24,544 nt of DNA from a virus (IMGVR_UViG_2660238269_000012), one strand, 5' to 3'; shown: positions 1 to 21,334, counted from the stretch's first letter. The notes: generated by a model from the sequence alone, not told the origin. Program-made: numbers and translations.

Positions 1-57
1 TACCAATAACGGCGAGTAAGTAGTACGCATCTTACCTCTTTTTTAGAGATAACCATT

Positions 58-168
58 ATGACAATAGAAAAACACGAAAGAAGCACTAAGGATTTGGTGA
101 AAGCAGCAGTATCGGGATGGCTGGGCACTGCGCTTGAATTTATGGATTTCAAGAGTCATGCGTGTTAA
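58..168 (+). pseudogene. ydfJ: 5' fragment of MFS transporter ydfJ, interrupted by prophage insertion
   Basis: ATG at 58 translates MTIEKHERSTKDLVKAAVSGWLGTALEFMDF, then KSHAC and stop. The ...EFMDF end is continuous with MDFQLYSLGAALVFHEIFFP at 23261, together giving a ProP-like MFS N-terminus. Confidence 0.8.
136..150. repeat. attL core, direct repeat with attR
   Basis: gaatttatggatttc here versus gaattatggatttc at 23256..23269. An 11-bp identical stretch ttatggatttc sits exactly where the ydfJ reading frame is split, next to the integrase gene. Confidence 0.7.
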
Positions 169-187
169 CTATTTGATAAATATTAAA

Positions 188-1483
188 TTAATTTTTCATT
201 GCTTCGTTATGGGGCATGGTTGGGGCAAACTCGCTTAACTGTGTATTTAACAAAGCTACCTGTGCATTATTGTTTTCAGACATCCATTTTCCGTATACCT
301 GAAATACCATTTGCGCATCTGCATGGCCCATCTGGTTTGCTATAAATGCCGGGTTAGCACCAGCTGTCAGCGACCAGCAGGCATAAGTATGTCTCGACTG
401 ATATGATTTTCGATGGCGGAGTCCGGCACGTTTTATCGCTGCGTCCCACATCTGCCTTATTGAGTCAACGGTAAAATGGTCACCATAATTTTTTACTCTC
501 GCTGACACTTCAGGTTGAAAAACAAAGGTGCATTTTTGTTTTTCTGTTCTGCCATACTCTCTGAGGTGAACATCAATGATATGCTCTTTGCTCAGTCTCG
601 TTAATGTCATCTGACTCCGGAGAGCGTCGATTGCTGGCTTAATAAGATGAATGACCCGATTGGTTCCCGCCTGTGTTTTTGGTACCGTGAAACGGTCTTT
701 TGCTAAATTTCTCCTGATCATCATTGTTCCATTTTTCAGATCTATGTCCTCCCATCCAAGTGCACACAGCTCACCAGGGCGAACTCCAGTATAAACAGAA
801 ACACACCATAAATTTTTTGCTTGCTGATTTCTGCACGCATCGATAAGACGGATAAATTCTTCCCGCGAAAGAGGATCCGGAATGGTTCTTGATTCCTTTA
901 ATGGCGAGATCCCCTTAAACGGATTATCTGCCAGGTAACCGTTATCAACACCAAACTGGAACACGGCGTTAAGATTTGTCATGTAATTATTTACAGTTAC
1001 AGCCGATCTCCCTGGTTGTGTAACAATATAGTTACTTTTGGGGATCTGGTATCCAGTCAGTAACTCTTTACGAACCTCCAGTAATTTTTCTTTATTAATC
1101 GATGAGGCAAGATTTTTTTCACCGATTATGCTCAGGATATTTTTGATGACGGCACGGTATGTGTTGAGTGATGTTTTGGCGACTTCAGTTTCTTTCAGTG
1201 CCAGAAATTTTTCAGCCAGTTCTTTTATGGTTAAATCTTGTCGGGCCTCACCAAATTTTTCCAGATTGCGTGAGGAGGGAAACTGTTTTGCATAGTCGAA
1301 AACACCAGTTTTTATTGCGTAACAAACAGAGGAGCGTAGTTCACCTGCAACGCGCCTGTTTTTTGCTGTGTCAGGAACCCCCAGATTTTCCCTGACTCTT
1401 ACGTCTTTATAAACAAACCAGATACGTAATTTCCCTCCATGGTTTTCCACGCCTGTCGGATATTTCATTTCAACTTCTCTCAT
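188..1483 (-). CDS. int: tyrosine-type phage integrase
   Basis: 431-aa ORF with a C-terminal catalytic region (RHTYACW, VFQVYGKW) and an arm-binding-type N-terminal domain. The Met at 1468 has a better SD (GAGAAG) and is the likelier start. Lies next to attL. Confidence 0.9.
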   Translation of the reverse strand: MREVEMKYPTGVENHGGKLRIWFVYKDVRVRENLGVPDTAKNRRVAGELRSSVCYAIKTGVFDYAKQFPSSRNLEKFGEARQDLTIKELAEKFLALKETEVAKTSLNTYRAVIKNILSIIGEKNLASSINKEKLLEVRKELLTGYQIPKSNYIVTQPGRSAVTVNNYMTNLNAVFQFGVDNGYLADNPFKGISPLKESRTIPDPLSREEFIRLIDACRNQQAKNLWCVSVYTGVRPGELCALGWEDIDLKNGTMMIRRNLAKDRFTVPKTQAGTNRVIHLIKPAIDALRSQMTLTRLSKEHIIDVHLREYGRTEKQKCTFVFQPEVSARVKNYGDHFTVDSIRQMWDAAIKRAGLRHRKSYQSRHTYACWSLTAGANPAFIANQMGHADAQMVFQVYGKWMSENNNAQVALLNTQLSEFAPTMPHNEAMKN

Positions 1484-1502
1484 TAGTTAGTGTGGCTTTT
1501 AG

Positions 1503-1754
1503 TCAAGTAAGATGACGTCTTGGTCTCGCTGATGCCTGGCGCTCAATCCAGCGATCAATTTCTTCCAGGTTGTAAAAGCATGGACTGTTATCCCATGGCA
1601 TACCGTCATGAGCGACATGCTTATATTCCCTTCCTTCCATAAACGATTTTTCCCGGGCCTTTTTTAACGTACCTTTTTTTATTCCTTTCAGCGCAATTAA
1701 CTGCTCTTCGGATACCCATTTGCCGGGAGAGACAATCATGATTACTTCGCTCAT
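1503..1754 (-). CDS. xis: excisionase-like small DNA-binding protein
   Basis: 83-aa ORF immediately upstream of int on the same strand, the lambda int-xis arrangement; small basic protein. Confidence 0.6.
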   Translation of the reverse strand: MSEVIMIVSPGKWVSEEQLIALKGIKKGTLKKAREKSFMEGREYKHVAHDGMPWDNSPCFYNLEEIDRWIERQASARPRRHLT

Positions 1755-1826
1755 CGATTTCTTTATCTCTTACATCAGACGAGCGCCGGTTGCAGAATAC
1801 CAGTCACAACCGGCGACAGTTGAACA

Positions 1827-3860
1827 TTAAGAATCAGCCTGACTCGGGATCAGTTTTTGCCAGATAACTGAAACGTATTTTGCCTGGTAACGGGCGTCAT
1901 CAAGTGCATTATGGCGCTCACCTTCGAATGGAATAGCCGTTCTGGCATCGAAGTCTATGGCTTTCCCCAGCTCAACGATTGTGCGTACATCGCGATCGTT
2001 GTAGTAACGCCACGGGCAGGGGATCCCCTGCCGTTCGTATGAACGGCGCAAAATCGTGTTGTCGAAGTTGGCTCCATTTCCCCAAACCTGAACAAAAAAT
2101 TCACCGGAGTTTTCGTCGATAAATTCTCGCAATTGTAACAGTGCATCATCTAACGGGATTTCATCGGTCATAATGGCAGATTGCGCTTCGCGTGATTGCT
2201 TAAGCCACCATTTAATGGTGTCCCGATCAATGACTCCGCCAGCAGTTTCCAGATCGATAGTCTTACTAAATTCCGGTCCCATATCTCCGGTTTGCGGATC
2301 GAAAAATATTGCACCTATTGAGATGATCGGGGCATCAGGATTTTTTCCCATGGTTTCAAGGTCGATCATTAGATGGTCACACGTCCTGCTGGTGGATGTG
2401 ATTTCGTGATGACCGTTCACCTTAATTGGGTGATCTGCCGTCTCGCCAGTTTCATTATCGCTATTGTGATGCTGATTGCCGCCAGTGTTCTCCTTGTGTG
2501 GATGTTCAGCGCCTTCCATTTCCTCCGGATCATCTTCCTGAACTTCAACCTGATACTCTTCATCGAATGTTTCTTGGTATGTTGCGTCGCCCATCACCGC
2601 GCCACAATCAGGGCAGTTGCCGCCGCCGGTCTGACCGCAGGCGGTGCAGACTTTTTCCACTTCCTGTTGCGCTACTGGTTCAGGCTGTTTCGTTTCTGGC
2701 TCGTTTTGTAACGCATTTGGACTGTTTTGTTCCGCTTTTTGGTAGTTCCGTTCCGATTCATGCTGGTTCTGGTTCACAGAATCGCGGGTCTGGAGCCCCT
2801 TAACCCATTTCGGATCATTCGGGTCACTAATCCCTTCAACAAATTCACCACGTGATGCAGCAAGCAACTTATCGGCGTCAGGCTGGCTGATATTGGCTGC
2901 CTGCATAATTTTGTTTACTTCGTCAGCGGTAACTTTTATCGGCTCTGGTTGTTCTGAATCTTCAGCGGTATCTACATTTTGCGGTAAGCCCGTGTATGTG
3001 CCATTTTTTCGGGCAAAATATTCTTCTTTTGTGATTTCAGTGGCGCCAGCAGCCAGTGCCTTATCCAGACCAGAGAGTTTGTTTGCGCGACCGTATTTTT
3101 CTCCGTCCTTATCTGCGAAGAGGAAATAGAACGGCCCCTCACGCTCTACAGATGGTTCAGCTTCCGGCGCGGTTTCATTTTTTGGGATATCAGATACCTC
3201 AGTTTCCACTGCATCAGTTTGTGTTTCTGATGACTGGAGAACATCAACAGTGCCCAGGTCTGTTTCTTCATTCTCAAACACGCCCTTTGTCGTCAGGTAT
3301 TCGCAGATATATTTGTTCAGTGCTACGGGATCTTTGTGAATGTCGATCGGACGCTCACGGACAAGGCCAAAAATAGTTTGGCGGTCGTAGCGAAGGGCAT
3401 CAGGCTGTTTGCGCATTGATGCCGAGATACGCTTCCAGTCTTCGCGGTCGTTGTCGATAACTTCTTTTTTTGCCCAGCGATGGATGCTGCCGTCAATGTT
3501 TCCGGCATCCACATCACTAGGCCAGAGAGCGTAGGCCAGTTCGTCATCCAGTGTTTTCCATGTCTGCTTGTATTCGCGATGAATGGCAGCAATGACCGGG
3601 CTGATTTTTCCTGTTGAATTTTCAGTGTACTGTTGATTGGCTCTGGCGCGGGCGAGATCAACAACAGACGTGTATTTTCCGGTTTCCTTGCGTTCACCTT
3701 CGCGACGTTTTTTCCAGATGCGCATCTCTGCCTGAATTTCGGGCCATTTAGCACCAGGAATACATTTATGCTTAACCCACCCAATGGCATGCAACTTAAG
3801 CTCCGGATACGGGTTATTCCCCTCTGAACAGGCGCGTAAGGACTGGCAAAACGCCCGCAA
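1827..3860 (-). CDS. large phage protein with C-terminal DEDDh (DnaQ-like) 3'-5' exonuclease domain, acidic low-complexity middle and a C4 zinc-ribbon motif
   Basis: C-terminal motifs MIDLETMG (Exo I), WGNGANFDNTIL (Exo II), ERHNALDDARYQ (Exo III, H-x4-D); CTACGQTGGGNCPDCG zinc ribbon; D/E/Q-rich region. The codon at 3860 is TTG; the first ATG is at 3725, so the start is uncertain. Confidence 0.75.
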   Translation of the reverse strand: MRAFCQSLRACSEGNNPYPELKLHAIGWVKHKCIPGAKWPEIQAEMRIWKKRREGERKETGKYTSVVDLARARANQQYTENSTGKISPVIAAIHREYKQTWKTLDDELAYALWPSDVDAGNIDGSIHRWAKKEVIDNDREDWKRISASMRKQPDALRYDRQTIFGLVRERPIDIHKDPVALNKYICEYLTTKGVFENEETDLGTVDVLQSSETQTDAVETEVSDIPKNETAPEAEPSVEREGPFYFLFADKDGEKYGRANKLSGLDKALAAGATEITKEEYFARKNGTYTGLPQNVDTAEDSEQPEPIKVTADEVNKIMQAANISQPDADKLLAASRGEFVEGISDPNDPKWVKGLQTRDSVNQNQHESERNYQKAEQNSPNALQNEPETKQPEPVAQQEVEKVCTACGQTGGGNCPDCGAVMGDATYQETFDEEYQVEVQEDDPEEMEGAEHPHKENTGGNQHHNSDNETGETADHPIKVNGHHEITSTSRTCDHLMIDLETMGKNPDAPIISIGAIFFDPQTGDMGPEFSKTIDLETAGGVIDRDTIKWWLKQSREAQSAIMTDEIPLDDALLQLREFIDENSGEFFVQVWGNGANFDNTILRRSYERQGIPCPWRYYNDRDVRTIVELGKAIDFDARTAIPFEGERHNALDDARYQAKYVSVIWQKLIPSQADS

Positions 3861-3879
3861 AAAACTCTCGAGGGCAAAG

Positions 3880-4050
3880 GTGAAGAAACCTGCTGTGGTT
3901 GATCCGGACCTTATCTGGTCATCACCTGACGGAGAAATACGTCGCTACGACAGTCGCCTAAACATAATCTGTCGCGAGTGCCGGAAGAGCGAAGTTATGC
4001 AGCGCATACTGGCTTTCTATCAGGGTAATTTTCAGGACGTGGCGCAGTGA
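3880..4050 (+). CDS. hypothetical small protein
   Basis: Possible GTG start at 3880 preceded by GAGGG; runs to the TGA at 4048..4050, which overlaps the GTG of the downstream fragment. Weak support. Confidence 0.25.
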   Translation: MKKPAVVDPDLIWSSPDGEIRRYDSRLNIICRECRKSEVMQRILAFYQGNFQDVAQ

Positions 4051-4181
4051 GTGCACCGGCAACCATTCTTGATATGTGCTGTGGCAGCCGCATGTTCTGG
4101 TTCGATAAGTCTGACGAACGGGCGATATTCAGCGATATCAGAAAAGAAGGATACACATTACGCAATGGGAGACGCTTGATT
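4047..4181 (+). pseudogene. N-terminal fragment of a putative SAM-dependent methyltransferase, truncated by IS911
   Basis: Translates VSAPATILDMCCGSRMFWFDKSDERAIFSDIRKEGYTLRNGRRLI. ILDMCCGS resembles methyltransferase motif I. The frame stops at the TGA formed by the first three bases of the IS911 left inverted repeat. Confidence 0.3.
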
Positions 4182-4253
4182 TGAAGTGGTTTACTGAATT
4201 TGGCCACCTGAACAGAGGTGATATGCTCACCTCAGAACAACACAGGTGCCATA

Positions 4254-5401
<1,148 letters not shown>

Positions 5402-5431
5402 CTCGGTGGCCAGTTTTTGTTGACCACTTCA

Positions 5432-6449
5432 CTTCACAAAGACCGTTATCACAGGCGACGGTCCACTGGAACTGCGTACTCCGCGCGATCGTGACGGTAC
5501 CTTCGAACCACAACTGGTAAAGAAAAATCAGACCCGTATTACCGGGATGGATAACCAGATCCTCTCGTTGTATGCCAAAGGGATGACCACCCGTGAGATA
5601 GCTGCTGCGTTCAAAGAACTGTATGACGCAGATGTTTCACCGGCACTGATATCAAAGGTTACCGATGCCGTGATGGAGCAGGTTGTAGAATGGCAAAACC
5701 GACCACTGGATGCTGTTTACCCCATTGTTTATCTTGACTGTATCGTCCTGAAAGTTCGGCAGGACAGTCGCGTCATCAACAAATCGGTGTTCCTGGCACT
5801 GGGCATCAATATCGAAGGTCAGAAAGAACTGCTGGGTATGTGGCTGGCCGAAAATGAAGGGGCGAAGTTCTGGCTCAATGTGCTGACTGAACTGAAAAAC
5901 CGCGGTCTGAACGATATCCTCATCGCCTGTGTGGATGGCCTGAAAGGCTTCCCGGATGCCATCAACACAGTATATCCGAAGGCCCGCATCCAGTTATGCA
6001 TCGTGCATATGGTGCGCAACAGCCTGCGCTTCGTGTCATGGAAGGACTACAAAGCCGTCACTCGCGACCTGAAAGCGATTTATCAGGCTCCCACGGAAGA
6101 GGCAGGCCAGCAGGCACTGGAAGCGTTCGCTGCGGCCTGGGACTGTCGCTATCCTCAGATAAGCCGAAGCTGGCAGGCTAACTGGCCGAATCTTGCCACG
6201 TTCTTCGCTTATCCAACGGACATCCGCAAAGTGATCTATACGACGAATGCCATCGAGTCGCTAAACAGCGTGATCCGCCATGCGATCAAAAAGCGTAAAG
6301 TGTTCCCGACAGACGACTCGGTGAAAAAAGTGGTGTGGCTGGCAATCCAGGCGGCTTCACAGAAATGGACGATGCCACTGCGGGACTGGCGTATGGCAAT
6401 GAGCCGCTTTATTATCGAGTTCGGTGACCGCCTGGACGGCCACTTCTGA
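5432..6449 (+). pseudogene. IS256-family (Mutator-like) transposase, 5'-truncated at the IS911 right end
   Basis: Frame translates LELRTPRDRDGTFEPQLVKKNQTRITGMDNQILSLYAKGMTTREI... through DGLKGFPDAI and TTNAIESLNSVIR, typical of IS256-family transposases. The N-terminal roughly 100 aa are missing; the frame opens directly at the IS911 end. Confidence 0.8.
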
Positions 6450-6510
6450 GAAAAGGTATTTACACAGAATCCTGAACAGGCTCCGATGAGGGCCACAATA
6501 CGGCTGTCAC

Positions 6511-6843
6511 TTAGACGTAAATATCAATGGTGCCAGCGGTATTTGTATCGTCTTTTTTCTCTTCTTTTTTATCAGGCTGAACTGTCGCGTCTTCATTCTT
6601 TTTCTCTGCCTGCTGCCTTAACAACTGCTCCAGTTGAGCCCAGAGGCTTTCAATTTGCTTCTGTACCAATGCAGCCATTTCTTTTTTCTGCTGTGTCGTC
6701 ATCCCCTCTTCCGATGAGATTTTCCCAAGCTTTTCAGTCAGCACCTGAATTTGTCTTGTGATTTTGGCTATTTCTGATGTTCCTTCCGGGGCGGAGTTGT
6801 TTGAAATAACGGTTGAGGTATTTCCCTGAATTGTGACAGACAT
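6511..6843 (-). CDS. flxA: FlxA-like protein
   Basis: 110-aa ORF MSVTIQGNTSTVISNNSAPEGTSEIAKITRQIQVLTEKLGK..., matching Qin FlxA in length and sequence as I recall it; SD AGGAG upstream. Confidence 0.85.
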   Translation of the reverse strand: MSVTIQGNTSTVISNNSAPEGTSEIAKITRQIQVLTEKLGKISSEEGMTTQQKKEMAALVQKQIESLWAQLEQLLRQQAEKKNEDATVQPDKKEEKKDDTNTAGTIDIYV

Positions 6844-6866
6844 AGATTTCTCCTTTTAAAAAAGCA

Positions 6867-6893
6867 CTATCGGCATGCACAAAAAAATCTTTA
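6867..6893 (-). promoter_or_regulatory. sigma-28 (FliA) type promoter upstream of flxA
   Basis: Minus strand reads TAAAGATT, an 11-nt spacer, then GCCGATAG, against consensus TAAAGTTT-N11-GCCGATAA; about 20 nt upstream of the flxA SD and ATG. Confidence 0.7.
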
Positions 6894-7045
6894 ATCGTAT
6901 TTCTTGTGTCATTAATTGTTTGATGTTCAGATTGTTTTCCTCGCGGGCTGGCGCGCCTCAGAAAGTAAAGCTTGTTGACAGGGGTAAACGTTCGGCAATA
7001 ATTTTCTGCCGCATGCGGGTGTTGCATAAAACGTGTTACGTTCCT

Positions 7046-13194: not shown

Positions 13195-14218
<1,024 letters not shown>

Positions 14219-14580
14219 GGTAATATTAAATCGGAACATTTACATCGCGGAATGTAAAATTTAAATAAAAAGGACTCTTCCATGAGCCAAAATTCCTGAA
14301 ATCTTAAGGGTAAGATAAAAGGTCTTAATCAGAATGACACGTTTTATTAATAAATAAAGCTATTCTTTCATTGCTGTGTTTTTCTTTACAAAAGTAATCC
14401 TTGCTATGGGTGGTTAATCATGCGTTAATGGTGTTCTGGTTTGTTACAAATTTATCTGAAGCAGTCATTGTTATAATTTTATTATTTGTACCTCTTGAGA
14501 TTTCCTTGTTGGTTTTTCTCTCTGATATTTTTTTTCGGACCATTCTGCCCAAGGGCTAATTTCTTCAAAAGGTAATAATT

Positions 14581-14793
14581 ATGTCTAACAAAATGACTGG
14601 TTTAGTGAAATGGTTTAACCCTGAAAAAGGTTTTGGTTTCATCACGCCGAAAGATGGCAGCAAAGATGTGTTTGTCCATTTCTCAGCAATTCAGAGCAAC
14701 GATTTCAAAACATTAACTGAGAATCAGGAAGTTGAATTTGGTATTGAGAACGGACCTAAAGGTCCTGCCGCTGTTCATGTAGTGGCGCTTTGA
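14581..14793 (+). CDS. cspI: cold-shock protein CspI
   Basis: 70-aa [70 protein letters not shown]. Confidence 0.95.
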
Positions 14794-14881
14794 GGTAGAC
14801 AATATTACAAACCATATTCACTTTAGATGCCCGTGTTGTCATGGTTCCCAGTATAGAACATCATCTTTTGATGTTTCTGAC

Positions 14882-14992
14882 ATGAATCCTTTCGGGGCAA
14901 AATGTATCTTTTGTAAATCAATGATGATTACATTTGATAATATTTCACAATACTTAAATGCCAGCCGTCTGTCGTTGGATTTAAAAAAGTGA
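14882..14992 (+). CDS. ynfN: YnfN-like small protein (possibly longer or frameshifted; Cys-rich)
   Basis: First ATG at 14882 gives MNPFGAKCIFCKSMMITFDNISQYLNASRLSLDLKK. The same frame is open upstream to 14783 and encodes RCPCCHGSQY with no ATG/GTG/TTG; an out-of-frame ATG at 14841 is present. Confidence 0.45.
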   Translation: MNPFGAKCIFCKSMMITFDNISQYLNASRLSLDLKK

Positions 14993-14996
14993 AAAT

Positions 14997-15022
14997 GAAG
15001 GCTCCTTCGGGAGCTTTTTTGC
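14997..15022 (+). terminator. rho-independent terminator after ynfN
   Basis: aaggctcc-ttcg-ggagcttt hairpin (UUCG tetraloop) followed by ttttttg. Confidence 0.7.
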
Positions 15023-15064
15023 TTGGTGTCTATTCGATGGATACTCACATACTACGGTAACATC

Positions 15065-15295
15065 ATGAAAAAAATCATAGTTTTTTTTAACTCTGAACCA
15101 GCAGTGGTAGTGCCAGCGATGACTGGAGTTAACACCATCATGCGTGAATATCCAAATGGCGAAAAAACACACCTTACTGTAATGGCCGCAGGGTTTCCAT
15201 CTCTGACCGGAGATCATAAAGTCATTTATGTAGCCGCGGATCGACATGTTACTTCAGAAGAAATTCTGGAAGCAGCAATAAGGCTCTTGAGTTGA
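15065..15295 (+). CDS. hypothetical protein
   Basis: 76-aa ORF from the internal ATG at 15065 (MKKIIVFFNSEPAVVVPAMTGV...); weak SD; not recognised. Confidence 0.4.
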   Translation: MKKIIVFFNSEPAVVVPAMTGVNTIMREYPNGEKTHLTVMAAGFPSLTGDHKVIYVAADRHVTSEEILEAAIRLLS

Positions 15296-15463
15296 TTTGA
15301 TGCTATTGCATTGATAATTCAGGAAAATTCTCTTTGTCTGTTTGTGTAAAATTTAGACTATCGTATGTTGATTATTGCGATGTTTCATCTTATCTTTTAC
15401 ACGTTTGCACCATATAATCGACTTACTGTGTAACTGGAAAGTCATAACAGACTAAAAGAGGAA

Positions 15464-15640
15464 ATGATGAATATTGAAAACTTAAAAACAAAAGCAGAAG
15501 CAGATATTTCTGAATATATAACAAAAAAAATTATTGAACTTAAGAAAAAGACCGGGAAAGAAGTTACCAGTATTCAGTTTACCGCACGGGAAAAAATGAC
15601 GGGTCTTGAAAGCTATGATGTCAAGATTAATTTAATCTGA
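15464..15640 (+). CDS. gnsB: GnsB-like small protein
   Basis: MMNIENLKTKAEADISEYITKKIIELKKKTGKEVTSIQFTAREKMTGLESYDVKINLI, 58 aa, found by direct translation (below the track length cutoff); SD AGAGGAAA. Confidence 0.8.
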   Translation: MMNIENLKTKAEADISEYITKKIIELKKKTGKEVTSIQFTAREKMTGLESYDVKINLI

Positions 15641-15666
15641 TGTATTCAATAATAAAATTTATCCAT

Positions 15667-15692
15667 AAACCTCGTTTTTACGGGGTTTTGTT
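15667..15692 (+). terminator. putative rho-independent terminator between gnsB and ydfO
   Basis: cctcg-ttttta-cgggg hairpin followed by ttttgttatattt; short stem, moderate support. Confidence 0.4.
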
Positions 15693-15791
15693 ATATTTGA
15701 ATGGTTCCGAATATCTAAATCACAATTGTTGATGGTTTTTATTAAACCAATGCAGTCCGGCTCAGGAGTGAGAGAAGCCGGACGTTATGGT

Positions 15792-16202
15792 TTAGCGTGG
15801 TAAGATCTGTGTAGTTTTCTGGATGCTTTCAGTAAATAGTAATGAATTATCAAAGGTATAGTAATATCTTTTTTGTTCGTGGATATTTGTAACCCACCGA
15901 AAAACTCCTGCTTTAGCAAGGTTTCTTCTGTATTCCTGAAATGTGATCTCTCTGGATTTCAGCTTATTAGAGGTCGTTTCTATAAGATGCCTATCCTTTG
16001 AAAATTTGACAGACACAATGTTTTTTAGGCCCTTTAATAACACTGTATTATCATTTTTTAATACAATATGAACATTCTCTGTGGCTAAATAGTAAATGTA
16101 ATGTGAGACATTGTGACGTTTTAGCTCAGAATAAAACCATTGATAGTTTAAATCGTTTCGAACTTTATCAAATATTTGTTTAAAAATGACTACCTGATCC
16201 AT
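15792..16202 (-). CDS. ydfO: YdfO-like protein (DUF1398)
   Basis: Start at the second Met ([31 protein letters not shown]...) preceded by SD GGAAGG gives 136 aa. Confidence 0.8.
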
Positions 16203-16259
16203 AGATAAACCTTCCATGTGATATGAGGGGGCGTAGTCTGCACGATTATCTAAATTGCT

Positions 16260-16493
16260 TCAATCTGGTCTGACCTGTTTTCTGAGCAATTCAGTAATGT
16301 CACTCTTTTCTTTGTTTGCTTCAGAAGAAACTCTTTTTTCTGAGCACAGTCTCCGGCGGCAGGCTTCAATGACCCAGGCTGAGAAATTCCCGGACCCTTT
16401 TTGCTCAAGAGCGATGTTAATTTGTTCAATCATTTGGTTAGGAAAGCGGATGTTGCGGGTTGTTGTTCTGCGGGTTCTGTTCTTCGTTGACAT
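16260..16493 (-). CDS. ynfO: YnfO-like small basic protein, possible ribbon-helix-helix DNA binder
   Basis: 77-aa MSTKNRTRRTTTRNIRFPNQMIEQINIALEQKGSGNFSAWVIEACRRRL...; a basic N-terminus then strand-helix pattern is compatible with an RHH fold (inference). Confidence 0.7.
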   Translation of the reverse strand: MSTKNRTRRTTTRNIRFPNQMIEQINIALEQKGSGNFSAWVIEACRRRLCSEKRVSSEANKEKSDITELLRKQVRPD

Positions 16494-16539
16494 GAGGTTG
16501 CCCCGTATTCAGTGTCGCTGATTTGTATTGTCTGAAGTT

Positions 16540-16870
16540 GTTTTTACGTTAAGTTGATGCAGATCAATTAATACGATACCTGCGTCATAATTGATTATTT
16601 GACGTGGTTTGATGGCCTCCACGCACGTTGTGATATGTAGATGATAATCATTATCACTTTACGGGTCCTTTCCGGTGATCCGACAGGTTACGGGCGGCGA
16701 CCTCGCGGGTTTTCGCTATTTATGAAAATTTTCCGGTTTAAGGTGTTTCCGTTCTTCTTCGTCGTAACTTAATGTTTTTATTTAAAATACCCCCTGAAAA
16801 GAAAGGAAACGACAGGTGCTGAAAGCGGGCTTTTTGGCCTTTGTCGTTTCCTTTCTCTGTTTTTGTCCGT
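16540..16870 (+). promoter_or_regulatory. lambda-type cos site (cosQ-cosN-cosB) upstream of Nu1
   Basis: Near-identical to the lambda right-end/left-end junction as I recall it: ...gatccgacaggttacg then ggcggcgacctcgcgggttttcgctatttatgaaaattttccggtttaagg...; cohesive-end sequence at about 16692..16703. Confidence 0.85.
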
Positions 16871-16880
16871 GGAATGAACA

Positions 16881-17426
16881 ATGGAAGTCAACAAAAAGCA
16901 GCTGGCTGACATTTTCGGTGCGAGTATCCGTACCATTCAGAACTGGCAGGAACAGGGAATGCCCGTTCTGCGAGGCGGTGGCAAGGGTAATGAGGTGCTT
17001 TATGATTCTGCCGCCGTCATAAAATGGTATGCCGAAAGGGATGCTGAAATTGAGAACGAAAAGCTGCGCCGGGAAGTTGAAGAACTGCGGCAGGCCAGCG
17101 AGACAGATCTCCAGCCAGGGACTATTGAGTACGAACGCCATCGACTTACGCGTGCGCAGGCCGACGCACAGGAGCTGAAAAATGCCAGAGACTCCGCTGA
17201 AGTGGTGGAAACCGCATTCTGTACTTTCGTGCTGTCGCGGATCGCAGGTGAAATTGCCAGTATTCTCGACGGGATCCCCCTGTCGGTGCAGCGGCGTTTT
17301 CCGGAACTGGAAAACCGACATGTTGATTTCCTGAAACGGGATATCATCAAAGCCATGAACAAAGCAGCCGCGCTGGATGAACTGATACCGGGGTTGCTGA
17401 GTGAATATATCGAACAGTCAGGTTAA
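16881..17426 (+). CDS. nohQ: terminase small subunit Nu1
   Basis: 181-aa MEVNKKQLADIFGASIRTIQNWQEQGMPVLRGGGKGNEVLYDSAAVIKWYAERDAEIENEKLRREVEELRQ..., essentially lambda Nu1. Confidence 0.95.
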   Translation: MEVNKKQLADIFGASIRTIQNWQEQGMPVLRGGGKGNEVLYDSAAVIKWYAERDAEIENEKLRREVEELRQASETDLQPGTIEYERHRLTRAQADAQELKNARDSAEVVETAFCTFVLSRIAGEIASILDGIPLSVQRRFPELENRHVDFLKRDIIKAMNKAAALDELIPGLLSEYIEQSG

Positions 17427-17667
17427 CAGGCTGCGGCATTTTGTCCGCGCCGGGCTTCGCTCACTGTTCAGGCCGGAGCCACAGACCGCCGTTGAATGGG
17501 CGGATGCCAATTACTATCTCCCGAAAGAATCCGCATACCAGGAAGGGCGCTGGGAAACACTGCCCTTTCAGCGGGCCATCATGAATGCGATGGGCAGCGA
17601 CTACATCCGCGAGGTGAATGTGGTGAAGTCTGCCCGTGCTGGTTATCCGGCAGGAAACACTGAATGA
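17401..17667 (+). pseudogene. terminase large subunit gpA, N-terminal fragment of about 80 codons, truncated by deletion
   Basis: MNISNSQVNRLRHFVRAGLRSLFRPEPQTAVEWADANYYLPKESAYQEGRWETLPFQRAIMNAMGSDYIREVNVVKSAR matches the lambda gpA N-terminus, then diverges (AGYPAGNTE, stop) where the sequence switches to the start of gene L. Confidence 0.85.
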
Positions 17668-18334
17668 ATGCACCCGTGCGGAGCAGTCGGCCAGCGTGGT
17701 GCTCTGGGAAATCGACCTGACAGAGGTTGGTGGAGAACGTTATTTTTTCTGTAATGAGCAGAACGAAAAAGGTGAGCCGGTCACCTGGCAGGGGCGACAG
17801 TATCAGCCGTATCCCATTCAGGGGAGTGGTTTTGAACTGAATGGCAAAGGCACCAGTACGCGCCCCACGCTGACGGTTTCTAACCTGTACGGTATGGTCA
17901 CCGGGATGGCGGAAGATCTGCAGAGTCTGGTCGGCGGAACGGTGGTCCGGCGTAAGGTTTACGCCCGTTTTCTGGATGCGGTGAACTTCGTCAACGGAAA
18001 CAGTGACGCCGATCCGGAGCAGGAGGTGATCAGCCGCTGGCGCATCGAGCAGTGCAGCGAACTGAGCGCGGTCAGTGCCTCCTTTGTGCTCTCCACACCG
18101 ACGGAAACGGATGGTGCCGTTTTTCCGGGGCGCATCATGCTGGCTAATACCTGCACCTGGACCTATCGCGGTGATGAGTGCGGTTATCACGGTCCGGCTG
18201 TCGCGGATGAATATGACCAGCCGACGTCCGATATCACGAAGGATAAATGCAGCAAATGCCTGAGCGGCTGTAAGTTTCGCAATAACGTCGGCAACTTTGG
18301 CGGCTTCCTTTCCATTAACAAACTTTCGCAGTAA
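17636..18334 (+). CDS. tail tip protein gpL homolog (native ATG replaced; GTG at junction)
   Basis: 232-aa product (M)LVIRQETLNECTRAEQSASVVLWEIDLTEVGGERYFFCNEQ..., near-identical to lambda L from residue 4. The first codons derive from the A/L deletion junction. Confidence 0.85.
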   Translation: MLVIRQETLNECTRAEQSASVVLWEIDLTEVGGERYFFCNEQNEKGEPVTWQGRQYQPYPIQGSGFELNGKGTSTRPTLTVSNLYGMVTGMAEDLQSLVGGTVVRRKVYARFLDAVNFVNGNSDADPEQEVISRWRIEQCSELSAVSASFVLSTPTETDGAVFPGRIMLANTCTWTYRGDECGYHGPAVADEYDQPTSDITKDKCSKCLSGCKFRNNVGNFGGFLSINKLSQ

Positions 18335-18339
18335 ATCCC

Positions 18340-20388
18340 ATGACAGAGACAGAATCAGCGATTCTGGCGCACGCCCGGCGATGTGCGCCAGCAGAGTCGT
18401 GCGGCTTCGTGGTGAGAACGCCGGAGGGAGAGGGGAATACCAACATCTCCGGTGTCACGGTGGTGTTCCGTGCCGGTGAGCAGGAGCAGACACCGCCGGA
18501 GGGGTTTGAATCCTCCGGCTCCGAGACGGTGCTGGGTACGGAAGTGAAATATGACACGCCGATCACCCGCACCATTACGTCTGCAAACATCGACCGTCTG
18601 CGCTTTACCTTCGGTGTGCAGGCACTGGTGGAAACCACCTCAAAGGGGGACAGGAATCCGTCGGAAGTTCGCCTGCTGGTTCAGATACAACGTAACGGTG
18701 GCTGGGTGACGGAAAAAGACATCACCATTAAGGGCAAAACCACCTCGCAGTATCTGGCCTCGGTAGTGGTGGATAATCTGCCGCCGCGCCCGTTCAACAT
18801 CCGGATGCGCAGGATGACGCCGGACAGCACCACAGACCAGCTGCAGAACAAAACGCTCTGGTCGTCATACACCGAAATCATCGATGTGAAACAGTGCTAC
18901 CCGAACACGGCACTGGTCGGCGTACAGGTGGATTCGGAGCAGTTCGGCAGCCAGCAGGTGAGCCGTAATTATCATCTTCGCGGGCGTATTCTGCAGGTGC
19001 CGTCGAACTATAACCCGCAGACGCGGCAATACAGCGGTATCTGGGACGGAACGTTTAAGCCAGCATACAGCAACAACATGGCCTGGTGTCTGTGGGATAT
19101 GCTGACCCACCCGCGCTACGGCATGGGTAAACGTCTTGGTGCGGCAGATGTGGATAAATGGGCGCTGTATGTCATCGGCCAGTGTTGCGACCAGTCGGTG
19201 CCGGACGGTTTTGGCGGCACGGAGCCGCGCATCACCTGTAATGCCTGGCTGACCACACAGCGTAAGGCGTGGGATGTTCTCAGTGATTTCTGCTCGGCGA
19301 TGCGCTGTATGCCGGTATGGAACGGGCAGACGCTGACGTTCGTGCAGGACCGACCATCAGATAAGGTGTGGACCTATAACCGCAGTAATGTGGTGATGCC
19401 GGATGATGGCGCGCCGTTCCGCTACAGCTTCAGCGCCCTGAAGGACCGCCATAATGCCGTTGAGGTGAACTGGATTGACCCGGATAACGGCTGGGAGACG
19501 GCGACAGAGCTTGTGGAGGACACGCAGGCCATTGCCCGTTACGGTCGTAACGTCACGAAGATGGATGCCTTTGGCTGTACCAGGCGGGGGCAGGCGCACC
19601 GAGCCGGGCTGTGGCTGATTAAAACGGAACTGCTGGAAACGCAGACCGTGGACTTCAGCGTGGGTGCCGAAGGGCTTCGCCATGTACCAGGTGATGTCAT
19701 TGAAATCTGTGATGATGACTATGCGGGGATCAGCATCGGCGGGCGCGTGCTGGCGGTGAACAGCCAGACGCGGACACTGACGCTCGACCGTGAAATCACG
19801 CTGCCATCCTCCGGCACCACGCTGATAAGCCTGGTTGACGGGCAGGGTAATCCGGTGAGCGTGGAGGTCCAGTCCGTCACCGACGGCGTGAAGGTGAAAA
19901 TGAGCCGGGTTCCTGACGGCGTTGCCGAGTACAGCGTGTGGGGGCTGAAGCTGCCGACGCTGCGTCAGCGCCTGTTCCGCTGTGTGAGTATCCGTGAGAA
20001 CGATGACGGTACGTATGCCATCACTGCCGTGCAGCATGTACCGGAGAAAGAAGCCATCGTGGATAACGGGGCGCACTTTGACGGTGACCAGAGCGGCACG
20101 GTGAATGGTGTCACGCCGCCAGCAGTTCAGCACCTGACCGCAGAAGTCACCGCAGACAGCGGGGAATACCAGGTGCTGGCGCGCTGGGACACGCCGAAGG
20201 TGGTGAAGGGGGTGAGCTTTATGCTTCGCCTGACCGTGGCAGCGGACGACGGCAGTGAGCGGTTGGTCAGCACGGCCCGGACGACGGAAACCACATATCG
20301 CTTCACGCAGCTGGCGCTGGGAAATTACAGGCTGACAGTCCGGGCGGTAAATGCATGGGGACAGCCGGTGCACATACCCATTCGATGA
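18340..20388 (+). pseudogene. in-frame fusion of gpK N-terminus (about 30 aa) to an internal segment of the central tail fibre gpJ, which is also truncated at its C-terminus
   Basis: Starts MTETESAILAHARRCAPAESCGFVV (JAB/MPN-type K N-terminus), then from ...EG-NTNISGVTVVFRAGEQEQTPPEG... follows lambda J (roughly residues 58-640), ending with 7 non-J codons at the stf junction. Confidence 0.8.
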
Positions 20389-21238: not shown

Positions 21239-21334
21239 GGTAAAACATATAAATTCTATAATTAGATGTATCTCTCCATTTACGGCAAGGAAGGGGCTTG
21301 GAAGACGTAAAGCATCTCACACCGAGATTATTTT

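Follow-up and report, generated by a model that had tools for sequence, protein, structure and literature searches.

The combination of a lambda-type cos site, a full small terminase gene and a cut-off large terminase gene is already known from E. coli K-12, where it is annotated in the DLP12 prophage as cos, nohD and aaaD. DLP12 retains lambda bases 1-1018, with nohD coding for a full 181-aa Nu1 homologue and with gene A reduced to the pseudogene aaaD, which is cut after ~100 codons and fused to tail genes, in this case tfaD. The Qin prophage of the same strain retains lambda bases 1-719; its deletion runs from the Nu1/A overlap to stfQ, and its nohA (b1548) is a 189-aa fusion. Both K-12 prophages have four Gs in the G run of cosN. 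Espion and co-workers are said to have described in 1983 that the Q-S-R-cos region of Qin can work in a viable lambda hybrid, and our own searches of the literature on nohA, Qin and cos, and on the lambda qin111 hybrid, returned only irrelevant papers. In experiments, DLP12 has served as a source of homology to lambda (PMC3945230, PMC545071), and the K-12 cryptic prophages showed no excision on lambda infection (PMC3945230). Cos-type PICIs, of which EcCICFT073 is an example, are also chromosomal and have an integrase and a lambda-like cosN with no TerL or capsid genes of their own (PMC6092414), but they carry alpA and pri-rep, undergo excision and replication induced by a helper, lack a TerS, have an unrelated cosB with Rpp and reach ~1/3 of phage size (PMC6092414, PMC9026076).

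The DNA analysed here is a stretch of 24,544 nucleotides classed as viral (IMGVR_UViG_2660238269_000012), referred to below as the window, and megablast alignment showed that it is the cryptic prophage Qin of E. coli, sited between rspB and ydfJ and co-linear at 98.5-99.9% identity with Qin of K-12 and of strain 1332KP. A 2-kb query around cos and nohA had matches in 5,189 of the 5,426 complete E. coli genomes, with 1332KP as the top match, and the identification was made from the 42-kb context of that match together with the K-12 reference. Annotation of 1332KP at this point reads ynfO, nohA, 'phage terminase large subunit family protein (incomplete)' and 'phage minor tail protein L'. The characteristic Qin genes were found in the expected order (relBE, hokD, ydfT, cspB/F/I, essQ, rrrQ, ydfO, ynfO, nohA, tfaQ, pinQ and ydfK), and the agreement with Qin of K-12 and 1332KP also takes in the rspB side, int, xis and ydfJ. 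At 24.5 kb the window is approximately the whole prophage, extending from just past rspB into ydfJ.

The part of the window that is specific to it, positions 1-7000, has open reading frames that include int (188-1483), a 677-aa protein with an exonuclease domain and IS transposases. The xis gene follows int, both reading frames look intact, and the 677-aa frame comes after xis. An IS3-family element and a partial IS1414 occupy the place of the K-12 dicA-dicB immunity region, and the rest of the window holds, in order, flxA, relBE, hokD, ydfU, ydfT (Q), cspF/B, the lysis genes, cspI, gnsB, ydfO, ynfO, cos, nohA, the remnant of A (A'), L, a K'::J' fusion, stf', tfaQ, pinQ and ydfK. Compared with K-12 Qin, which has the same site, gene order, cos region and a Nu1 homologue and is 98.5-99.9% identical in the common segments, the window keeps a full Nu1, 82 codons of A, gene L and part of J, but IS elements have replaced its dicA-dicB immunity region, with the int and xis frames intact. 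It shares with DLP12 the lambda-type cos, the full 181-aa Nu1 homologue and the truncated A, but DLP12 is another prophage at another site, and its A is joined at codon ~102 to tfaD rather than at codon 82 to L. Promoter and terminator scans around cos gave nothing above shuffle level.

The first-pass annotation had described cos and Nu1 as near-identical to those of the phage, and alignment bore this out. Window positions 16692-17646 matched bases 1-956 of NC_001416 at 98.3% identity, with 15 mismatches and 1 gap, and when a permuted lambda record was included in a multiple alignment, the 154 bp to the left of cosN, cosQ among them, showed no difference. The packaging termination subsite cosQ, GGGTCCT, lies at 16663..16669 on the plus strand and is the same as in lambda; it was placed by direct reading of the sequence and by its position in lambda, 48473-48479. 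The role of this 7-bp element and its conservation have been described previously (PMC4669245). Searching the window with the cosN 16-mer gave 1 site, where shuffled sequence predicts 0, and chance is of no concern for this region because the identity to lambda is this high.

To the right of cosN, cosB has its subsites in the lambda order R3-I1-R2-R1, as these were defined by Murialdo and Feiss, who also gave the R3 coordinates and the 16-bp sequence that R2 and R1 have in common (PMC9026076). Only five substitutions separate the window from lambda between cosN and the start of Nu1 (C53T, A73G, T102C, A137G and a C->T change at the first base of R1), and the stretch from cosN to R3 is free of indels. 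The main TerS binding site, R3 (lambda bp 50-65), is found at 16741..16756 (plus strand) and contains C53T at 16744, a change also present in K-12 DLP12, 1332KP and strain B379, while the contacted bp 55-63 are those of lambda. The inverted 16-bp repeat R2, at 16800..16815 on the minus strand, is the same as in lambda, and the I1 IHF region between R3 and R2 contains A73G (16764) and T102C (16793). A137G (16828) sits in the loop between R2 and R1. The first-base change of R1 (16841..16856, plus strand) is at 16841 and is common to 1332KP and to B379, a strain whose Qin has a complete late region and carries the same five cosB substitutions as the window.

The nicking site is where the window departs from lambda. 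cosN, defined as 12 bp with 2 bp on each side (PMC9026076), consists in lambda of the 12-bp segment GGGCGGCGACCT between conserved CG dinucleotides, 16 bp in all, but in the window the site (CGGGCGGCGACCTCG, 16691..16705) comprises 15 bp, possibly through a sequencing error, with a G run (16692-16694) that is one G short. The junction therefore reads TTACGGGCGGCGACCT in the window against TTACGGGGCGGCGACCT in lambda, DE3, K-12 Qin and 1332KP; the shorter run had been claimed in the first-pass annotation, and the alignment confirmed it, with 3 Gs against 4 in lambda. The top-strand nick falls within the run that has lost the G, and the spacing between cosQ and cosN is also 1 base shorter. It had further been proposed that the cohesive end is changed, and this holds for one of two equally good readings: the 15 bp can be read as CG-GGCGGCGACCT-CG, in which case cutting could possibly give an 11-nt cohesive end, or as C-GGGCGGCGACCT-CG, in which case the 12-nt end GGGCGGCGACCT is unchanged and the left CG has become AC. 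The left half of cosN and the CG dinucleotides flanking the nicks are conserved and sensitive to mutation, with G2C cutting yield ~10-fold (Feiss et al., PMC4669245), and under either reading the missing G would affect this part of the site.

Whether the G is truly missing from the DNA is an even call. The distribution of the two forms would fit a homopolymer undercall during sequencing or assembly at a locus that in reality has four Gs. The 81-bp cos segment is present in 4,232 complete E. coli genomes, none of which gave a full-length exact match to the context with three Gs, and the best matches among E. coli genomes differ from the window by the extra G only. The shorter run was likewise absent from species-representative genomes (0 against 9 with four Gs) and metagenome contigs (0 against at least 120), and viral contigs held a single case against at least 120 with four Gs. 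That single case (L009) is a different prophage, 97.6% identical and DLP12-like to the left of cos, and it too pairs the short cosN run with a second G-run contraction, from G5 to G4, which frameshifts its gene A. The window shows the same pairing: its private indels relative to both 1332KP and K-12 are two, and both are contractions of G runs, from G4 to G3 in cosN and from G5 to G4 at 21293-21297. Against an undercall, both contractions in the window are non-coding, yet coding sequence holds ~78-82% of the G/C runs, all of them unshifted; two random hits would both fall in non-coding runs with a probability of ~0.03-0.05, and slippage in short G runs is also common as real mutation.

If the deletion of the G is real, it would be a private slippage mutation that probably weakens top-strand nicking, and most likely it would just disable further a packaging site that is already dead. 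We consider it quite improbable that three Gs represent a real allele that arose independently in the Qin remnant and in the other viral contig and disables or re-specifies the chromosomal cos; on that reading it could be the repair scar of terminase nicking at the top-strand site, or could have been favoured for sparing the chromosome from breaks made by a co-resident lambda-type terminase. Single-base differences in homopolymers within functional sites call for a check of the reads before they are interpreted.

Immediately downstream, nohA (16881..17426, plus strand) codes for a Nu1 small terminase homologue of 181 aa in an intact frame, with 179 of 181 residues the same as in lambda and only A74T and L131I differing. 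Residues 1-73, which cover the recognition helix (17-24) and the wing (31-39), are those of lambda, and the Pfam model PF07471 (Phage_Nu1) matched with 336 bits over its positions 1-164 of 164. Together with cos, this gene is a member of the lambda packaging family. There are zero nucleotide differences between this gene and nohA of 1332KP (WP_000453587.1). The same protein is annotated in both intact and deleted prophages, and its conservation is therefore uninformative on selection in the defective state. A dN/dS test on nohA in deleted lineages was set aside, as there was no divergence to measure.

The large subunit is in a very different condition. The gene A remnant (17401..17667, plus strand) has 88 codons, of which the first 82 belong to A (to 17646) and the last 6 are out-of-frame codons from gene L followed by a stop, in agreement with the earlier estimate that gpA is cut off after about 80 codons. 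Its product matches lambda gpA over residues 1-82, through Tyr82, with one substitution (V80A), and the A::L junction presumably falls at the putative P-loop of gpA, which we place at residues 76-84. The Pfam model GpA_ATPase covered the remnant at profile positions 3-40 of 247 only, and its 23.1 bits lie below the cutoff of 25.6. No A-derived sequence was found in the window downstream of A codon 82. Residues 83-641 of gpA are thus absent, and with them the ATPase motor, the C-terminal nuclease and the portal-binding tail; all head genes of lambda are missing as well, and the remnant is unable to package DNA.

How a nearly unaltered cos and Nu1 came to stand beside so short a piece of A is best seen by comparison with B379 (NZ_CP090456). 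Its Qin lies at the same site, has four Gs in cosN, and has a complete late region with nohA, a full A (1,926 bp), W, B, C, D, E, FI, FII, Z, U, V, G, T, H, M, L, K, I, J, lom, stf and tfa. The 7,348 bp leading up to the first deletion junction are 99.95% identical between the window and B379, with 3 mismatches and 1 gap, the gap being the cosN G. Beyond that point the late region of the window is the B379 version minus three clean deletions with microhomology, of 12,480, 1,424 and 4,921 bp. The first joins A codon 82 to L codon 3 at 17644..17646 across a TAT microhomology, with 12,480 bp lost; the second joins K to J at 18430-18431 (GA microhomology, 1,424 bp lost) and the third joins J to stf at 20362-20365 (CAGC microhomology, 4,921 bp lost). 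The parental state is here taken from another strain, B379, rather than from the window's own lineage.

Two open frames were created or altered by these junctions. The minor tail gene L (17636..18334, plus strand) has a hybrid N-terminus with a GTG start derived from A sequence, gives 336.8 bits with the Pfam model Phage_tail_L and is annotated alike in 1332KP. The K'::J' fusion ORF (18340..20388, plus strand) has Pfam J domains and contains the second and third junctions.

The first junction was present in 6 of the 5,426 complete E. coli genomes; the K::J junction was found in none of these 5,426 genomes and in none of the viral contigs. The lambda bases that are retained differ accordingly among relatives. 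Qin of 1332KP keeps 1-956 and 13434-17608, the window keeps 1-956, 13430-14221 and 15670-17605, and strain P13-6, together with four other strains, keeps 1-956, 13434-13575 and 16534-17608. Together with the two K-12 prophages described above, Qin and DLP12, they form a nested series of retained segments, as in stepwise prophage erosion. An apparent breakpoint in A common to many genomes, whose matches end at query position 1347 (window position 17646), was rejected: those genomes have a full-length A, and their matches stop there because the alignments run out at the window's own deletion junction.

These comparisons lead us to propose that an ancestral Qin whose lambda-like late operon was complete, and for which B379 serves as proxy, would have lost 12,480 bp by illegitimate recombination at the 3-bp TAT, joining A codon 82 to L codon 3, and that two further smaller deletions, K::J and J::stf, would have followed later. 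The cos site, nohA and the first 82 codons of A would then survive only through their position just outside the deletion and through the recency of the event. Nothing shows that cos, nohA or A' is retained for a function. We regard it as very probable that the locus, including its origin in a recent deletion, is as a whole explained as the cos and small-terminase end of a Qin prophage whose decay stands at an intermediate stage.

The first-pass annotation had drawn another conclusion from the same layout, namely that a lambda-type helper could in principle package, in trans, an element keeping its packaging signal and DNA-recognition subunit. The premise stands, as cosQ, cosN and cosB and an apparently intact Nu1 are kept and the motor is lost, but the proposed packaging in trans does not follow, given a single cos and no replication genes. 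Read as a satellite, the remnant would hold on to cos and its own TerS so that the TerL, proheads and tails of a helper could package and transfer it, and several features do fit: cosQ and cosB are essentially those of lambda, Nu1 is nearly so, and the int and xis frames look intact, so that excision is formally possible. Plasmids become transferable by lambda once they carry a cloned lambda-type cos, and both lambda and phi80 mobilise EcCICFT073, a PICI with a cos site (PMC6092414).

Genome size and cos number tell against such transfer. The 24.5-kb window is ~ half of the lambda genome as a monomer, although a dimer of ~49 kb would fit a lambda head. The packaging limits of lambda are ~38-51 kb. 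No alpA, primase-replicase, O/P or other replication initiator was recognised in the annotation of the co-linear relative or among the window ORFs in 1-7000, and without such genes the repeated cos sites of a concatemer would not arise. Only one cos lies in the window, and no second cos was found within 52 kb downstream in 1332KP, its closest relative, where one 11-mer with a mismatch was at chance level. Packaging initiation needs cosB and cosN and then runs from cosN toward Nu1 (PMC4669245, PMC9026076, PMC6687093). Cos terminases also need a second cos (PMC6687093), as completion depends on a second cosQ-cosN, failing which uncut DNA protrudes and tail joining is blocked (Chiang et al., PMC6687093). 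Particles made from lambda prophages with an excision defect are immature (Sternberg and Weisberg 1975, as cited in PMC8008629).

The single cos, the lack of replication genes, a size half that of lambda and the requirement for a second cos together make helper-dependent transfer unlikely, and the left half of cosN is altered besides. Moreover, only 6 of 5,426 genomes share the configuration, and relatives have eroded it further, which is the opposite of what is expected of a maintained strategy. With an intact parent that is 99.95% identical, recency explains the retention: cos and Nu1 are kept because the deletion is young and not as a satellite strategy, and a cos and Nu1 without a motor are a by-product of where that recent deletion began. 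Nor is the window a PICI or other satellite, since neither alpA nor pri-rep nor a cosB of the Rpp type was found, for all that it shares with them in integrase, cosN and missing TerL and capsid genes. Overall we consider the satellite explanation very unlikely and retain recent deletion from an intact Qin as the origin of the layout.

Residual activity of the remnant is a separate matter. A chromosomal cos might be cut by a terminase of lambda specificity, and the cos-nohA-A' patch might then act as a recombination hot spot at which packaging alleles are exchanged, adding to lambdoid mosaicism; we view this as a tentative possibility, on the unlikely side. An infecting or co-resident phage terminase may bind cosB and nick cosN, giving a break, and the break together with a ~1-kb homology patch of near identity may promote recombination with that phage; the most that could follow is rightward packaging that begins but has no means of ending. 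With DLP12, whose cos-nohD-A' layout is of the same kind, the yield of lambda recombinants was ~100-fold above that with Qin or Rac, and cos adjoined 10 of the 19 recombinant junctions in that work (PMC3945230); in the window, ~1.1 kb around cos is at least 98% identical to lambda. The published evidence for cutting of a chromosomal cos is, however, indirect, and the short G run, if real, alters the left half and flanking CG of cosN, which are deleterious when mutated (PMC4669245). Any such recombination would also be a consequence of homology rather than a sign of a selected function. Within these bounds, a passive target or homology patch seems the most plausible residual activity.

It could also be argued that NohA and the 82-residue A fragment, which contains the TerS-binding N-terminus of gpA, act as a decoy that poisons terminases brought in by superinfecting phages of the lambda type. 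TerL does bind TerS through an N-terminal domain, and TerS binds TerL through a C-terminal one (PMC9026076), and both are encoded in the window as open frames. However, the A fragment breaks off where the ATPase domain has barely begun and might be unable to fold, relatives have lost the configuration, which is rare in any case, and neither evidence of expression nor supporting literature or experiments were found; such an anti-phage role is the least probable of the readings considered here, and highly improbable in itself.

The finding matters little beyond bookkeeping. What looks like a design, with a signal and a recognition subunit but no motor, would be a snapshot of stepwise prophage erosion, and since an intact parental form (B379) is still circulating next to relatives that are eroded further, Qin offers a clean example of microhomology-mediated decay. 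The cos-nohA patches left behind by this process are homology targets, and possible cleavage targets, for infecting lambdoid phages.

Outside the window, the only other three-G cosN (lambda has four Gs) found among E. coli genomes, species-representative genomes, and metagenome and viral contigs was that of L009 (IMGVR_UViG_2896595138_000002), with its cos at 3845-3884 on the minus strand. L009 is a lambdoid prophage different from that of the window, being DLP12-like to the left of cos and lambda-like to the right of it. In gene A of L009, a G run at lambda position 1951 has contracted from five to four, and the resulting frameshift splits the gene. The G-run changes of L009 reflect either the same sequencing artefact that is suspected in the window or independent decay.

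The window itself holds a second private one-base G-run contraction, from five to four, in the tfaQ-pinQ spacer (21293-21297), where K-12, the closest relative 1332KP and B379, our proxy for the undeleted parent, all have five Gs. In 1332KP, an IS1414 insertion lies exactly at the position of this run. Two lambda records also differ from each other by one G at lambda bp 138-139 (window about 16828-16830), in the loop between cosB repeats R2 and R1, which reads GCGAGGCTTTTT in NC_001416 and GCGAGCTTTTT in PV340536, and the shorter form is present in every copy of Qin and DLP12. This difference is a further short G-run length polymorphism within cos. Exact matches to lambda cosN were observed in the genome records of Raphidiopsis brookii D9 (a cyanobacterium), an Aeromicrobium and an Alicyclobacillus 'plasmid', as well as, among the matches listed, in several very high-coverage marine metagenome contigs; contamination with lambda control or vector DNA seems a more likely source of these matches than natural occurrence.

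A private T to C substitution is located at window 17639, right at the junction (17644-17646) that joins terminase gene A to tail gene L. All six genomes with the same junction have T at this position, and the change converts codon 80 of A from Val to Ala and also alters codon 2 of the hybrid L frame.

In the left part of the window, a 677-aa open frame (1827-3860, minus strand) includes, towards its C-terminus, an exoribonuclease domain of the Rv2179c-like 3'-5' type (227 bits). In K-12 Qin, the corresponding region is that of the ydfE pseudogene. The version in 1332KP is about 0.6 kb shorter, bears the annotation 'incomplete' and lies directly against an IS3 element. At 4218-6449, where K-12 Qin has dicA, dicC, dicF, dicB and ydfA-D, the window has an element of the IS3 family (OrfA/OrfB) together with an IS1414 (Mutator-family transposase) that is truncated at its 5' end. 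Because these two elements sit in its place, the immunity and division-inhibitor region is missing from the window; the reading frames of int and xis appear intact.

The Qin prophage of E. coli B379 (NZ_CP090456, 2406423-2429605), at the rspB-ydfJ site as in the window, has a complete morphogenetic operon of the lambda type, running from nohA through tfa. Therefore, in some strains Qin is far less decayed than the K-12 reference suggests.
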